Position numbers: made by a program
Part shown: positions 15,001-21,000 of the stretch, in pieces
Layout: every line of letters begins with the position of its first letter
How positions within the stretch are numbered: the stretch's first letter is position 1
Origin: Candidatus Babeliales bacterium
GTDB taxonomy: Bacteria; Babelota; Babeliae; Babelales; JBFXEV01
Assembly: GCA_050179755.1 (NCBI GenBank)
Contig: JBFXEV010000001.1
Coordinates: 585,994-649,993, forward strand
Direction of reading: 5' to 3'
DNA: 64,000 bases

Positions 15001-18000
15001 TGCCAGTATTGCGTGGACAATATAGTTGTATAAACATGAGCGTTTGCTCGGCTGCATCTTCTACCGTAGTGGTAGAATCTTGCGATGCTCTAATAAGCCC
15101 AGTTTTGCCATGTTGCTCCAAGCACCAAGGACTCATATTCATAAGGATGTTGTCTGGTTGATGAATTACCAAATTGGGGCCTTCATCAAGTATATTTAGC
15201 TGATCGTCAGTAATAATGGTGGCAATTTCAAGAATATGCTCTGTTTCAATATTGAGACCTGTCATTTCTAGGTCAATCCAGACAAAGTTTCCTCTTGGAT
15301 ATTCTTTTTTTTGCATCGTAGCTCTTTTCATGGTAAAGGCAAATTGGCATCTATAGTACAAGAATTGTTTACTTTTTCAATAATTTTCTTTCATTATCTT
15401 TTTTTAATAAATCTAAAATGGTTTCTATAGTACGGTTTTTTTCACGAGCTTGTGCAAGTCTTAGTTGGTGCGTATTGAAAACGGCATCGCTTGTAGTTGT
15501 TACTCCAGGCATAGGTAGCATTTCTTCAGCTAAATCTAATGGGGTTTTTCCTTTTGCAAGCACGGGTGCATTTTTATATGTTGGTCTATGCTCCAAAGAC
15601 GTATCTGTTGCATTATTAAACACTGATGCAGTACGTGCAAGGAGTACTTTAACCCATTCAAGTTGTTGTAAGCCTACCGCCAGATGCAGAGCACCAAAAC
15701 CTTCTTTGGTTCTTCTATTAGGATTCGCGTCATGATAAAAAAATATTAAAATCGCTATCTTGCGTTTGGCATCGGTACATGTAGATAAGAGTAACTCATA
15801 AAAAGGAGTCACCCCAAGCCTGTTTTGTATATTTGGATCTGCTCCAGCACTAAGCATGTGTTGGACTGCCTCCGAATTTGATTCCTCATATGTTTTTAAA
15901 AGAAAGTGAAAAGAAGTTTCACCTAGCCAATTTTGAGTATTAGGATTTGCTCTATGTTTGAGCAAAGTGAGTAGTAATTTATGGCGGAAGAAACAGAATG
16001 ATTCAAGTTCTGCATGCGGTCTAAACACATAATGTAAAGCAGTTTCTCCGCTCCCATTTTGACTATCTATCGGTACGCCATGTTCTATCAAAAGATCTAT
16101 TAGTTTAGGGCGCGTTTCTTGAAACACTCTATCAGAACTGTGATGTTTTATTGCGTAATGCAAAGCATTTTCTTTTTCTTTATTGCCAAGTAATGGATTG
16201 GCGCCCTGCTTGAGAAATAAAGTAACTTGCTTTAATAATTGGGATGCATCAAATTCATTTATTGGGGTACTTGCAAGTAATAAATGGAGCGGTGTTTCGC
16301 CATTGATATCTTGCGCATTCACCGTAGAGGTTGCCATTGGGTGTTTGAGCAATAATTCTGTGCTGCTGTAATCTCTAATTTGTACCGCATAATGTAATCG
16401 TGTTTTGCCCGTTTGCTTGTCTTGTGCAGTTATTGTTTTATTTTCGCAAAGTTGTTTGATCGCACCTTCAAAAACAGTGTGACTAGCAGCAAGTAATAAT
16501 TTTTTATCAATAATCGCAAGAGCTGGATTGTCCAGCGCCCTACAAAGCATAACATTGTATGGCAATCTTTGGGCATAATCGAGTGTAGTTTGTCCGGCAG
16601 TAGTTTCAATCATTGGATTTGCGTTATAGGTAAGGAGTAGCGTGGCAACCTTAAATTGTTGAGAAGCTTCAAATTCATTTGACGTGGTAAAGCTTACGGC
16701 AAAATGCAGTGCTGTTTCTCCAGTTCCATCTGCAATATCAATTAATCCAGGTGATTCTTGTAATAACTGTTCTATGCAGGTAGTTTCTTGTAGCCATGTT
16801 GCCAAATGGAGACGAGTTCTTCCATGTGGGTCTTGTGCATTTATTGATGTAGTTTGTATCAGATCTGCAACTGCTTGTTGCACGTTACTATCAGCAGCTG
16901 CACGCAGTAATCGAGCGTCAATTTGCGCAAGCATGCTCAATGGTTCCTGTACATCCATCCGCCGTTGCTCCTCCGGAGCTCCCGCTACGCCTAAGCTATA
17001 GCGTGGCCAGATGGCGTGATTGGTATCACGTTCTTCGGCAAGTTCCCAGCCTTCGCGTGAAGCTACGGCGGGCACGGCAGGATGAGCGGACCTTGGCCAA
17101 GTCGGATCCATTGCATATATGTTGTGCGCAAATTGCAGTGATATGCATAAGAAAAAAATATTTTTTAACTTCATAATATTCCTTTTATGCTAAGTATATC
17201 TCATGCTTAATGTCAGTCTACTTGAAAATAAATAAAAAATGTAAGCGTTTTAATTGCATTGTGGTATAATAATGCCACTTATTTTAGAGAGGAAAATCTA
17301 TGCAAAAAATTCGTGTTGGTGTGATTATGGGAGGCATGTCAATTGAAGATGAAGTGTCATTTAATTCTGGCAGAACTATTTGTGATCATTTAGATAGTTC
17401 TTGTTACGAAATTATTCCATTATTTCATACGCACGATAATGCTTTATACATTTTACCATGGCGATTTTTGCATCGTGGAAAAATTTCAGATTTTATTGAG
17501 CGATTAGCTTCTGAGGGTAAGCAAGTAACATGGGATCAATTAAAAAACACGATTGATTTCATGTACATTGCAACTCATGGTAGATTCGCAGAAGATGGCA
17601 CGCTCCAAGGCATGCTGGAAGTGCTTGGCATTCCCTACCTTGGTGCAAAGGTATACGCAAGTGCTTTGCGCATGGATAAAATTGTGCAAAAAAGCGTGCT
17701 CCAACGGCATGGAGTTTTGGTTCCACGCTATGCGGTAGTTCGTGCGCATGAAATTGGCCAATTTTCATTAATGAAAGATGATATTTACAAACGCATGGAA
17801 AAAGCAGGCGTTGTGTTCCCCTGCATTGTAAAACCACAAGCAGAAGGTTCTAGCTTGGGCATACGTAAAGTGCATACGCAGGACGATTTGGAAGAAGCAT
17901 GCAAAAAAGCAGCGTGGGTAAATGCTCAATCAGCACAGAATGTGCTGATTGAAGAATGTTTGTTTGGCATGGAATTTACGTGTGTTATATTGACCGATTA

Positions 18001-21000
18001 TACAACTGGCCAACCAATATTTTTACCGCCAACAGAAATTGTGATAGAAGATGGTTCTGATATTTTTGACTATGAACAAAAATATATGCCAGGTCGTGCG
18101 CAAAAATTTACACCAGCGCGTTGCAGCCAAGAGCTTACCGAGCGTATTCAACAGACATGCTATACAGCAATGCGCGCGCTTAATATTACTAACATGAGCC
18201 GTATTGATGGGTTTGTAACACCACATGAAGAAATTTATATTATTGATCCTAATTCTCTTTCTGGTATGGGGCCTGCAAGCTTTTTATTTAAGCAAGCTGC
18301 CGAATATGGCATGAATCATACAGACTTGATAAATCATTTGATTAAAACAGAATTAAAATCCTATAGAATAGGAATGGAAATGAATACTCCCGAGACAAAA
18401 GCTGGTGCGGTTAGTGCAACACATAAATTGAAAGTAGCAGTACTTCTTGGCGGTAGATCAAATGAAAAAGAGATTTCACTTGATTCTGGCAGAAACGTCG
18501 TCTATAAATTATCGCCCAATACATACGATGTCACACCACTTTTTGTGAGCAGCAAGCTTGAACTGTATCGCTTGAATGCAAAATTATTAGTATGTAATAA
18601 TACAGGTGAAATTGAGCGCCAACTAACACCAGATTTGTTTGTTGCTTGGAATGATTTGCCTAAGATTGCAGATTTTGTTTTTATTGGATTGCATGGTGGA
18701 GAAGGTGAGAATGGTGCAATACAAGGCACACTAGAACTTCTTAAATTACCATATAATGGCCCTTCGGTACTGACCAGTGCATTATGTATGAATAAATATG
18801 AAACAAATCAATTGCTTAAGGCGCACGGCTTTGCTGTGCCTGAAAGCGTGCTTATAGAAAAAAATGAATGGCAAAGGGCGCAAGATCAGTGCATTCAAAA
18901 AGTAATTACCACACTTCAGTTCCCGCTTATTTTAAAACCACATAATGATGGCTGTAGTGTTGGTGTACAAAAAATTCTAAATGAACAACAATTAAAACCA
19001 ATGCTTGAAGCGTTCTTTGTAGATCGCATGCAAGCTCTTTTAGAAGTTTGCGTTATTGGCATGGAATTAACTGTTGGTGTAATTGGCAATACTACTGCGC
19101 AAGCATTACCGCCAAGTAAAGCAGTAGCAGCTGCTGGTGTTCTTTCTATGACAGAAAAGTTTTTGCCAGGCGCTGGTGAAAATCAAACTCCTGCGCCACT
19201 TTCTGCTCAAGCAACTGAATTGGTGCAACGCACTATTGAGCACGTATATACAACAGTTGGGTGCAAAGGTTACTCACGCATTGACTGCTTTTATCAAACT
19301 CAAGCAGAAAGCCCTACAGGATTTGAACGCGTGGTTATTTTAGAAATTAATACGCTACCAGCACTTACTCCTGCAACGTGCCTTTTTCATCAAGCTGCAG
19401 AGCTTGGCATGAAGCCAATGGATCTCATTGATAAGATTGTGCAACTTGGGTTAGAACAACATAATGGTGAGACTGCAAAGGAAATGAACGTTAATAAAGT
19501 GCGCCACGCATCACAAACAGTTCATCTGGATGTAAAGTAAAATTTTTTTAGATCTAAAAAAATGGAGGAAGTGATTTCTCACTTCCTCCAAAACAAACAA
19601 CTCACGCTGTTCTAATTGTTTATCATATCCTTATGAATATGCTGCAAGTATATCTTGAGCGATCTTCTCTGCAATTACATAGCATACACCATTCGGCCAA
19701 CGCGCGCTTACTGGCGTAACGCTCATATCTGCAATATAGAGATCTTGCATACCAAATACCTTGCCATTTTGATCAACAACCGCTAATGGATCGCCTACTA
19801 CACCCATCTTACAGGTTCCCATAGCGTGATGCCCACCGGTATAATTGAGTAAGAAGGTTCGTAATTTCGCTTGATCAACATCAGCTATGCTGTTGAATTC
19901 TACTACACCATCCAATAGAATGTCTTCTGGAGATGGGAATAGGAGCTTTTCAAAGTAAGCAGGAGATGTCGCTTTTAAGGCTGTCCAAACAGGGAATACC
20001 GTATTATTCATCACATCAATCCAAACTTGTAGATCGTGTGGATGTTCAAGATATGGCATATGTATGAACGGTGGCACGGTAGGGTCACTAGATACCAGTT
20101 TTACAAATCCTTCTGATAGGTTGTCTTGTTCTTGTTCTAAGAGCAGACCTAGTATGTTGTTAGGATCTACCATAATAGGCAAGAATGCAGCATCGCCAGT
20201 AATAGTTGTTACACCACCACCAAATACGCCAGGATTAGTTGGATATAATAATGTTATCGTGGTGACACCAGGAACATTATTACGAGTAACTGTAGGAAGC
20301 CCGTTAAATGCTGAAGCAGTAAACTTGCCGTTATAGTTTGGATTGCTATTACCTTCTACCGTAAATCCTCCTGATGACACTATTGATGCTGGTATGGTAA
20401 ATGTTACTGACCATGGACCCGTATCAGGTGGCGTTGGAGCAACTGGTGCTGCAGCAGAAGTAACGGTGATAGGGCCAGGATTTGCCGTTGGATTAGTTGT
20501 ATCAAGTAAAATATTGTGGAATGTGTTTCTGGTATTGGTGCTATAAATTGCAGGAACGTTTCTGAGCCCTGACCAGAACTTTTGCACAAATGGATCTGTA
20601 GATTCACAGTTAATAAAGAATAGGCTGCCAGCAACAAAGAGTAAATCAAAAGCTGGTGGAATACCATTGGCTCTGTCAGTTGGATTTACAAACGTAGAGA
20701 GAGTATTGAATGTTAAGAAAGAGTTAATGGCTCCCTCTGCTTTTTGCCAAACTAAAAACAGTTCGGTAGAGTCAAGCAAATGTTGCCCTACGCCAGGCAA
20801 ATGGAGTTTTGACTCTATGCCCATTGGTTCTAAATCAAATTTATTACCAATTCCTGAAAGGTTGAGAATTTGAGGCGTATTGAAAGAACCCGCACAAAGT
20901 ATTACAGCTTTTTTTGCATATACTTTGCAGGTATCTTTTTTCTTTGCAGCAACGCCATTAAATCGAGCATCACCACGAGTGCCACCATATCCTGCTTGTG

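Follow-up and report, generated by a model that had tools for sequence, protein, structure and literature searches.

Why should a bacterium carry Ddl, its D-alanine--D-alanine ligase, as two complete enzymes joined in one polypeptide, and do the two units do the same job? The question is raised by a gene in the window, a stretch of 64,000 nucleotides from the genome of a Candidatus Babeliales bacterium (phylum Dependentiae), which is assembled as 1 contig of 1,525,295 b and is 96% complete.

Two Ddl units in one chain

The Ddl-Ddl protein (P0001) consists of two Ddl units arranged head to tail, each with an N domain and a C domain. The Pfam boundaries given in a preliminary description of the locus were recovered unchanged. 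The features of the gene, with residues equated to E. coli DdlB by alignment, are as follows.

17287..17292, + strand: Shine-Dalgarno-like GAGAGG, 7 nt 5′ of the Ddl-Ddl ATG, inferred by reading the sequence
17300..19540, + strand: Ddl-Ddl coding sequence, 746 aa and stop, ATG start, one open frame
17312..17647, + strand: unit 1 Dala_Dala_lig_N, residues 5-116 (Pfam)
17699..18346, + strand: unit 1 Dala_Dala_lig_C / ATP-grasp, residues 134-349 (Pfam), also carrying R301, D303 and N318
17849-17851, + strand: unit 1 S184, DdlB S150
18080-18085, + strand: unit 1 K261-Y262, DdlB K215-Y216
18245-18247, + strand: unit 1 D316, DdlB E270
18278-18283, + strand: unit 1 S327-F328, DdlB S281-L282
18359..18424, + strand: linker between unit 1 and unit 2, about residues 354-375, SYRIGMEMNTPETKAGAVSATH
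18431..18763, + strand: unit 2 Dala_Dala_lig_N, residues 378-488 (Pfam)
18812..19444, + strand: unit 2 Dala_Dala_lig_C / ATP-grasp, residues 505-715 (Pfam), also carrying R660, D662 and N684, with L615, N628 and H697 at DdlB Y210, Y223 and M285
18953-18955, + strand: unit 2 C552, DdlB S150
19157-19162, + strand: unit 2 K620-F621, DdlB K215-Y216
19343-19345, + strand: unit 2 E682, DdlB E270
19376-19381, + strand: unit 2 T693-C694, DdlB S281-L282
19445..19537, + strand: C-terminal tail, residues 716-746, unconserved; relatives align to about residue 725 only
19563..19590, - strand: 12-bp hairpin then T-run, terminator-like by pattern match only

The terminator-like hairpin separates the Ddl-Ddl gene from the GMC-oxidoreductase gene, which converges on it.

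Each half alone is recognized by Pfam, with E-values of about 1e-38 for the C domain and about 1e-22 for the N domain. On the NCBIfam models NF002378 (cut-off 243) and TIGR01205 (cut-off 245.65) the whole chain reaches 461.5 and 456.6 bits, scores that are the sum over its two units. Taken alone, unit 1 and unit 2 fall just under these cut-offs with 237.6 and 230.3 bits on NF002378 and 234.3 and 227.1 bits on TIGR01205. The MurC-Ddl model NF011171 is matched through its Ddl part alone, with 261 bits where the cut-off is 1015. The units align to each other at 33% identity (121/369 columns, E 1e-59), which upholds the strong divergence described earlier although not the exact figure of 31%. The tandem architecture is real, far beyond chance.

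An ESM Atlas model of the exact protein has a pTM of 0.75 and a pLDDT of 0.83. It superposes across both units on models of Bacteroidota clusters (TM 0.90-0.91) and of a Streptophyta cluster (TM 0.84), and whole-chain TM values between distant tandem Ddls in the Atlas are 0.84-0.94. These figures are a lead rather than a test. The linker is short and weakly conserved across the family; in the Dependentiae-type group the gap between unit envelopes has a median of 4 residues and a minimum of 0.

A PF07478 profile search of the genome (G000) returned 2 matches, both within the Ddl-Ddl frame, in agreement with the earlier claim that this is the sole Ddl of its genome. The source of D-Ala and the consumer of the dipeptide are both encoded: an alanine racemase (Alr, 209 bits) and MurF (366 bits, above cut-off), together with three other Mur-ligase matches and three PBP transpeptidases. 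A DdpX/VanX-type dipeptidase is also present in this genome and in just 141 of the 261 genomes of the phylum. A search of the genome for D-2-hydroxyacid dehydrogenases (PF02826) gave none that was convincing, the best matches scoring 33 and 20 bits and both containing an internal stop, and D-lactate is therefore an unlikely second substrate here.

An ancient pair of paralogues

Matches to P0001 occur in 237 of the 261 genomes of Dependentiae, all labelled 'same order', and in 185/189 of those with at least 90% completeness and at most 5% contamination. The 150 matches listed cover about residues 1-725 of the query at 53-61% identity, with one at 79%, and nearly all are a single open frame. Conservation of the fusion across the phylum, as proposed in the preliminary description, is thus borne out. 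The remaining 24 genomes lack a match; in one family (f15) it is absent from all members (0/6 genomes), two of which are 97-98% complete.

Outside Dependentiae, the fused unit 1-unit 2 protein is found in Patescibacteria and plants and in many Bacteroidota of the Cytophagales type. The claim that the two-headed enzyme is a novelty of Dependentiae therefore falls, and the plant fusion has been published (PMC9954125). The order of the units, u1 then u2, is invariant. The tandem protein is the only Ddl in 5/5 tandem-bearing Bacteroidota genomes checked, and at 40/46 Bacteroidota loci a PASTA-domain module follows it or is fused to it. Longer natural fusions extend the chain to Ddl-Ddl-Mur ligase (P0200) and Ddl-Ddl-Mur ligase-alanine racemase (P0266) and are Rosetta-stone links to the D-Ala branch.

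Separate u1 and u2 genes also exist. In 4 Dependentiae genomes they lie side by side, whereas in 3 small genomes belonging to the order of G261 they are not neighbours; the split genes sequenced (the 4 Dependentiae genomes, G456 and G472) retain the signature of each unit. Of 61 genomes sampled in the order of G261, 11 have lost the catalytic unit 2, so that unit 2 is dispensable in some lineages. The sole Ddl of 5/5 genomes checked is a u1-type unit with a degenerate remnant of the u2 N domain, a finding that fits u1 as the essential D-Ala-D-Ala site.

A tree of 110 units (53 u1-type, 45 u2-type and 12 canonical rows) resolves three clades with UFBoot/SH-aLRT support of 98/77 for u1-type, 100/99 for u2-type and 100/98 for canonical Ddls, the last being a small outgroup made up of E. 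coli DdlA and DdlB and 10 single Ddls of Bacteroidota. The same three subclades recur within u1 and within u2, each with support of at least 99/92, and the mirror-tree correlation between the units is r = 0.97. The u1/u2 pair has one ancient origin and its units co-diverge; both clades predate the split of the Dependentiae, Bacteroidota and Patescibacteria-type sequences. The antiquity of the halves suggested earlier accordingly gains real support.

Four fixed differences in the active site

The preliminary description proposed for the halves either different dipeptides or one catalytic and one regulatory site. The residues that bear on this are numbered here as in E. coli DdlB. The catalytic residues of both halves are retained. 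Both units of 120/120 fused homologues carry E15, E68, K97, S151, E187, K215, R255 and D257 without exception, and at least 119/120 retain H63, K144, E180 and N272. The DdlB ATP/Mg/catalytic set (E15, H63, E68, K97, K144, K215, R255, D257, E270, N272) is complete in unit 2; unit 1 has the same set except for a conservative change of E270 to Asp that is fixed in the tandem family. Of these residues, Glu15 and Arg255 have roles in EcDdlB that have been described (PMC5717164).

When 361 aligned positions were scanned in 240 tandem proteins, which fall into three size groups, only 4 proved to be fixed differently between the units, all of them in the active site. Unit 1 carries S150, Y216, D270 and S281, and unit 2 carries C150, F216, E270 and T281; single Ddls of the canonical type show S, Y, E and S (12/12). 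The markers at 150 and 216 are thus present in unit 1 (S184, Y262) and replaced in unit 2 (C552, F621), in 120/120 homologues each. We found no published description of this asymmetry. Ddls whose sole product is D-Ala-D-Ala conserve Ser150 and Tyr216, and exchanging them in DdlB for the Phe and Ala of LmDdl2 confers weak D-Ala-D-Lac activity (PMC7691350). In lactic acid bacteria Phe versus Tyr decides between depsipeptide and dipeptide (PMC5996685). The idea that the halves do different jobs gains support from these four fixed differences.

The explanation we favor, and to which we would give an even chance of being right, is a housekeeping, asymmetric pseudo-heterodimeric Ddl in which unit 1 makes D-Ala-D-Ala and unit 2 is a re-tuned second active site. 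The protein would be the cell's only Ddl and a member of an ancient two-headed family, its chain most likely folding into a fixed pair within the molecule, presumably with the geometry of a covalent pseudo-heterodimer. Unit 1 (residues 1 to about 353), with its Ser150/Tyr216 markers, is the probable maker of D-Ala-D-Ala and together with alanine racemase would supply MurF. Unit 2 (about 376-725) keeps the ATP-, Mg- and transition-state residues and is predicted to be a second active site; Cys/Phe/Thr in place of Ser150/Tyr216/Ser281 alongside the preserved catalytic residues suggest that it is chemically re-tuned. Its choice of second substrate may be relaxed or different, or it may yield the same product in another kinetic regime. 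Turnover at both sites and the identity of the products are what we infer from this pattern. The more specific proposal that unit 2 forms a product of its own, a D-Ala-D-X dipeptide or depsipeptide, or makes D-Ala-D-Ala under conditions in which unit 1 fails, is tentative. If true, an asymmetric bifunctional Ddl would be conserved from Patescibacteria, Dependentiae and Cytophagales-type Bacteroidota to plant plastids, and wall precursors or another D-alanyl metabolite of these little-studied lineages and of chloroplasts would depart from the textbook, in a way that nobody has so far looked for.

A plain covalent dimer is possible, if not what we expect. Here both units make D-Ala-D-Ala, the fusion merely stabilises or stoichiometrically couples an obligate dimer, and the four differences are historical or kinetic fine-tuning within the same job. 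The Y216F mutant of DdlB reportedly retains D-Ala-D-Ala synthesis, so a Phe at this position need not by itself alter the product. The retention of catalytic residues in both units and the status of the tandem as the only Ddl, in Dependentiae as in the Bacteroidota checked, are in keeping with it. EcDdlB itself functions as a dimer in which both sites are occupied (PMC5717164), and moss is reported to have only D-Ala-D-Ala-type pentapeptide (PMC9434261). However, neutral drift fails to explain why the fixed differences, in 240 proteins of three groups of bacteria and the plant sequence, are those four in the active site only. The replacement of both strict D-Ala-D-Ala markers in unit 2 alone is left unexplained, and even unlinked split genes keep both signatures.

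It is unlikely that unit 2, rather than being a ligase in vivo, controls unit 1 in a regulatory or scaffolding role, for example as a site that senses ATP or D-Ala or by offering MurF or PASTA partners a docking platform. The PASTA modules of Bacteroidota hint at regulation, and the N-domain remnant kept where catalytic unit 2 was lost could be read in the same way. In unit 2, however, the catalytic set is near-invariant (kept in at least 38/39, 67/72 and 127/128 sequences of the three groups), and the two units are equally conserved (mean pairwise identity 63% and 65%), the pattern of a working enzyme rather than a pseudo-enzyme. The earlier option of one catalytic and one regulatory site is disfavored because the catalytic residues are preserved in both units.

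Two independent enzymes that share a transcript and a polypeptide, with no contact between them and each pairing with the like unit of another chain, would account for the viability of split and even unlinked forms. This arrangement is most improbable given the invariant u1-u2 order, the very short linkers, the Atlas values for the whole chain and the mirror-tree correlation. A mis-called or mis-assembled junction of neighbouring ddl genes, such as the adjacent pairs genuinely present in some relatives, can be practically dismissed, as the frame is open with no stop, is continuous in nearly all of the 150 listed matches from independent genomes and in 120 database proteins, and lies in a stretch contained in three DNA runs (word share 1.00; possibly the source sample itself).

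Relation to known ligases and fusions

E. coli DdlB and DdlA (2DLN, 1IOV, 4C5A) are canonical homodimers of the same three-domain ATP-grasp enzyme. Each Ddl-Ddl unit aligns with them end to end (E 1e-37 to 1e-38) and is 33-36% identical to DdlB. Unlike these enzymes, Ddl-Ddl has two diverged units per chain, with Asp for the Mg ligand Glu270 in unit 1 and Cys150, Phe216 and Thr281 in unit 2. Canonical Ddls form their own clade, separate from u1 and u2.

Unit 2 resembles the D-Ala-D-Lac ligases (VanA, and LmDdl2 of lactic acid bacteria) in having Phe at the Tyr216 position of the omega loop and in the loss of Ser150, changes tied to depsipeptide activity (PMC7691350). The K-F of unit 2 aligns to the K-Y of T. 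thermophilus Ddl. The corresponding residue of LmDdl2 (1EHI) is Phe261, which we take, after the wording of PMC7691350, to be the counterpart of Tyr216. At position 150 unit 2 has Cys and not the Ala of D-Ala-D-Lac ligases. VanA is the best PDB match for its C-terminal segment. Assignment of unit 2 to the Van-type or D-Ala-D-Lac ligases by curated models was rejected, the scores being far under every cut-off (D_ala_D_lac 143.4 versus 550, D_ala_D_ser 164.2 versus 520, VanG 172.2 versus 495, VanA 120 versus 775).

Other fusions of the D-Ala branch are the MurE-MurF chimeras (PMC10214165) and MurF′-Alr (PMC13726279). Like MurC-Ddl, they join consecutive or cooperating peptidoglycan-precursor enzymes, whereas the partners in Ddl-Ddl are two paralogues of one enzyme. 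In the large chain of carbamoyl-phosphate synthetase, an ATP-grasp enzyme with an internal duplication, the active sites of the two homologous halves are specialised; its reactions are different and the analogy is one of logic only.

The plant tandem DDLs likewise have two complete Ddl units in one chain. Moss Ddl knockouts are unable to dimerise D-Ala (PMC9954125), and the available text of the plant DDL papers makes no mention of halves that differ at active-site residues. At 956 aa versus 746, the plant proteins exceed Ddl-Ddl in length and have inserts and N-terminal extensions, and their units nest with the Patescibacteria-type group and not with the Dependentiae group. The Coffea protein P0258, the only plant sequence compared, aligns colinearly with P0001 across both units (E 1e-73); its u1 and u2 fall into the u1 and u2 clades respectively, and it carries the same unit-1 and unit-2 signatures.

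The Ddl-Ddl gene and its place in wall synthesis

P0001, the two-headed Ddl, is the product of a single 746-aa open reading frame in a genome (G000) that consists of one contig of 1,525,295 b and is 96% complete. The preliminary description had placed two Dala_Dala_lig_N and Dala_Dala_lig_C pairs in this frame, and Pfam finds them again at the same coordinates (residues 5-116 with 134-349, and 378-488 with 505-715). The halves share 33% identity (121/369 columns, E 1e-59) in a half-vs-half alignment, and each aligns end to end with solved Ddl structures, the best E-values being 1e-38 to 1e-42. 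They are also the sole matches in G000 to PF07478, the Pfam profile used for Ddl. The gene lies alone on its own strand, flanked by an ankyrin-repeat gene that diverges from it and a GMC-oxidoreductase gene that converges on it; a putative hairpin terminator (a pattern match) separates it from the latter. No dcw/mur cluster surrounds it in the window, and a promoter scan gives chance-level results (9 found vs 8.5 expected). The gene neighbourhood in the window is uninformative as to role. Three DNA sequencing runs contain this stretch and may be where it came from; no RNA run was listed for it.

Features of the window and of G000
17300..19540, + strand: two-headed Ddl ORF (P0001), ATG start, 746 aa
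12529..14019, - strand: ankyrin-repeat protein, 496 aa
15369..17174, - strand: ankyrin-repeat protein, 601 aa, signal-like N-terminus
19631..22357, - strand: GMC-oxidoreductase-like protein, 908 aa, hydrophobic start followed by a Lys/Cys-rich N-terminal stretch
22814..25525, - strand: GMC-oxidoreductase-like protein, 903 aa
25645..27894, - strand: GMC-oxidoreductase-like protein, 749 aa
G000:C1:694079-694594 (L009 1456..2079), - strand, not in the window: M15 D-Ala-D-Ala dipeptidase of the DdpX/VanX type

The two ankyrin-repeat proteins are of a kind typical among candidates for host interaction in intracellular bacteria. The three GMC-oxidoreductase-like genes are tandem paralogues, and such a threefold expansion is unusual in a 1.5-Mb genome.

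G000 encodes an alanine racemase (209 bits), a MurF (366 bits, above the cut-off) alongside three further Mur-ligase matches, and three PBP transpeptidases. Because racemase, MurF and PBPs are present together with a single Ddl, the D-Ala branch of wall synthesis appears to pass through P0001 alone. Its role, judged from sequence, is that of the housekeeping Ddl. The M15 dipeptidase of G000 is 207 aa long and has an N-terminal hydrophobic segment; dipeptidases of this family are found in 141/261 genomes of the phylum, and some of these have 2-5 matches. A VanX-type enzyme as an obligate partner of the tandem is rejected by its occurrence in 141/261 genomes vs 237/261 with the tandem.

Fixed differences between the two active sites

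Unit 1 (residues 1 to about 353) and unit 2 (about 376-725) were compared in 120 fused homologues, using the residue numbers of E. coli DdlB. E15, E68, K97, S151, E187, K215, R255 and D257 are invariant in both units of all 120, and H63, K144, E180 and N272 are kept in both units of at least 119. D148, L210, N223 and H285 are constant in unit 2.

Active-site positions that differ between the units (120 fused homologues)
S150: unit 1 Ser 120/120; unit 2 Cys 120/120
Y216: unit 1 Tyr 120/120; unit 2 Phe 120/120
E270: unit 1 Asp 120/120; unit 2 Glu 120/120
S281: unit 1 Ser 116/120; unit 2 Thr 120/120
L282: unit 1 Phe 117/120; unit 2 Cys 110/120

When 361 aligned positions are scanned blind for residues fixed in each group (at least 85%) and different between units 1 and 2, exactly four are returned: 150, 216, 270 and 281. 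In the canonical single Ddls the residues here are S150, Y216, E270 and S281 in 12/12. The unit signatures recur in the Bacteroidota and Patescibacteria-type tandems (groups B and C below), in split genes, in the plant protein P0258 and in the tandem of the Dependentiae genome G173. We take E270 to be a Mg ligand and S281/L282 to form part of the second D-Ala pocket.

Two of the four positions have a published bearing on specificity. Ddls making only D-Ala-D-Ala conserve Ser150 and Tyr216, and DdlB in which these are swapped for the Phe and Ala of LmDdl2 gains weak D-Ala-D-Lac activity (excerpts of PMC7691350). In lactic acid bacteria one Phe or Tyr sets depsipeptide versus dipeptide activity (excerpts of PMC5996685). 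In the portions of the literature consulted there is no mention of the four-position asymmetry. D-Ala-D-Lac as the product of unit 2 is weakened for this organism, since no convincing D-2-hydroxyacid dehydrogenase was found in G000. Two old halves with different jobs, as the preliminary description proposed, is the best-supported reading of these sequences, on grounds that were not available to that description.

Distribution and origin of two-headed Ddls

P0001 is matched in 237/261 genomes of the Dependentiae phylum and in 185/189 of the high-quality ones (at least 90% complete, at most 5% contaminated), every match being labelled 'same order'. All six genomes of family f15 are among the 24 without a match. 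PF07478 has no match in four near-complete genomes, namely G115 and G118 (f15), G080 (family f6) and G007 (family f2, one contig). A MurF-like match is present in three of these four, above the cut-off in G007 and once each, below it, in G115 and G118; G080 has none. It is possible that such Ddl-less genomes have lost the wall or import the dipeptide. In G030, G110, G197 and G247 units 1 and 2 are two adjacent genes in unchanged order, with a 4-base overlap in G247. These are secondary fissions, because the split units sit among fused ones in the tree.

Family f19 presents a separate case. An 826-aa frame on contig C11 of G173 (L010/L011) is a tandem Ddl of the Patescibacteria/plant type, with both units within group C. 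Either the gene was replaced by horizontal transfer or the contig was mis-binned. G171 and G174-G176 are grouped with G173 by weak P0001 scores; G173 alone was examined.

An exhaustive phmmer search of 1.84 billion representatives gives 1283 matches at E <= 1e-30, and tandem Ddl-Ddl proteins make up almost all of the best 150 of these 1283. Sorted by unit length, 240 tandem proteins form three groups and one outlier.

Groups of tandem Ddl-Ddl proteins
Group A: 128 proteins, about 705-790 aa; named members from Candidatus Dependentiae/Babeliales
Group B: 39 proteins, about 860-950 aa, PASTA extension in some; Bacteroidota
Group C: 72 proteins, about 720-850 aa; named members mostly Patescibacteria

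The novelty that the preliminary description had seen for one phylum is thus not borne out: P0001 belongs to an ancient family of two-headed Ddls that Dependentiae share with Patescibacteria, with some Bacteroidota and with plants. The named members of group C are 4 Peregrinibacteria, 2 of the 'Patescibacteria group', Paceibacterota, Liptonbacteria, and one each labelled 'Rickettsiales' and 'Gammaproteobacteria'. This group also holds mega-fusions, a 1262-aa Ddl-Ddl-Mur ligase (P0200) and a 1638-aa Ddl-Ddl-Mur ligase-alanine racemase (P0266); the latter carries the whole D-Ala branch on one chain. Myxococcota clusters of 730-752 aa named Ddl family reach a TM of only 0.48-0.54 to the P0001 model (ESM Atlas) and may represent another long Ddl-like protein, differently arranged.

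For group B, 544/600 matched genome stretches were confirmed and 80 loci kept, all 80 of full length. Cultured genera include Marivirga, Hymenobacter, Rhodocytophaga, Xanthocytophaga, Raineya and Imperialibacter, and in 5/5 tandem-bearing Bacteroidota genomes checked the tandem frame holds the only Ddl-grade matches. Of 151 genomes sampled evenly from the phylum of G261, a Bacteroidota genome with a tandem, only G261 itself carries one, 141 have single-size Ddl frames and 9 have no match, which confines the tandem to particular Bacteroidota lineages. Within the Cytophagales-type order of G261, 61 sampled genomes show a full-length tandem in 31, two pieces of one frame in 3, separate non-adjacent unit 1 and unit 2 genes in 3 (all small genomes), fragments only in 1, single-size or weak matches only in 9, a frame of 561-656 aa in 11 and no Ddl match at all in 3. 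The separate genes lie ~8 kb apart in G456 (L107/L108) and ~665 kb apart in G472 (L109/L110), both genomes of ~1.1 Mb, and on different contigs in G438 (~1.1 Mb). Signatures were read in G456 and G472 only, and are intact in the unlinked genes of both.

A small PASTA-domain protein is encoded after the tandem gene on the same strand in 40/46 Bacteroidota loci (for example L012:8636-9442 (+)). In P0139 and P0147 Pfam finds the PASTA module joined to the tandem in one chain. P0257 is a PASTA protein by name, and a PASTA fusion in P0169 and P0232 is inferred from length only. The module may tie the tandem Ddl to a peptidoglycan-binding sensor.

The 561-656-aa forms consist of one unit 1-type unit (D270, Leu at 282) and a 116-175-aa tail. 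This tail aligns with the unit 2 linker and N-domain (E 8e-7), and its GG-x-S-x-E motif is gone. Such a protein is the only Ddl in 5/5 genomes checked (G416, G439, G455, G445 and G462; L111-L115). Since a unit 1-type unit with a degenerate unit 2 remnant is the sole Ddl in all five, a unit 1-type site alone seems sufficient for the essential function; some lineages seem able to dispense with catalytic unit 2. These forms are a natural experiment in unit 2 loss, in which position 282 is back to Leu.

A maximum-likelihood tree of 110 units (IQ-TREE, LG+G4, 352 columns) separates a unit 1-type clade (53 rows, UFBoot 98 / SH-aLRT 77), a unit 2-type clade (45 rows, 100/99) and a canonical Ddl clade (12 rows, 100/98). 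Inside unit 1, and again inside unit 2, the sequences of Dependentiae, of Bacteroidota and of group C each form a monophyletic subclade, at 99/92 or better. The antiquity of the halves claimed in the preliminary description is supported by these separate clades with mirrored subclades. Pairwise identities of unit 1 vs unit 2 across 80 proteins correlate at r = 0.97, and conservation is equal (63% in unit 1 and 65% in unit 2). Given the matching subclades, this correlation and the equal conservation, the pair arose once and has co-diverged since, as measured against a small canonical sample from two phyla only.

Comparison with plant and canonical Ddls

The Coffea protein P0258 (956 aa) is colinear with P0001 across both units (E 1e-73) and carries both unit signatures. 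Its units fall within group C, each in a clade of 16 rows, at SH-aLRT values of 100 and 98. The ESM Atlas model of P0001 itself (pTM 0.75, pLDDT 0.83) superposes across both units on Bacteroidota clusters (TM 0.90-0.91) and also, at TM 0.84, on a Streptophyta cluster that is all eukaryotic; these superpositions are a lead and not a test. According to excerpts of PMC9434261, FCB-group homologues are nearest to moss Ddl, and the moss pentapeptide building blocks resemble those of typical Gram-negative bacteria. A Ddl-Ddl fusion is already published for plants (PMC9954125); no description of a two-headed Ddl in bacteria turned up in searches of the literature on Dependentiae, Patescibacteria and Bacteroidetes. 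The part of PMC9954125 cited here leaves open for plants whether one AtDDL half suffices and whether AtDDL still acts as a D-Ala-D-Ala ligase; the bacterial family bears on both questions.

Many members are called a 'hypothetical protein', an 'ATP-grasp domain-containing protein' and even a 'UDP-N-acetylmuramate--alanine ligase' by their sources; this annotation can now be corrected. The two-headed Ddl is the sole Ddl across nearly a whole phylum of intracellular bacteria and the plant enzyme for plastid peptidoglycan. The textbook Ddl, a classic target of antibiotics, is a homodimer. Beside it stands a second design, which is ancient: a pair of paralogous units, fused in most cases, with active sites that are fixed differently at just four residues, two of them published specificity markers. 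The family offers a clean, testable case of subfunctionalisation and, as a putative pseudo-dimer, a natural model of the Ddl dimer in a single chain.
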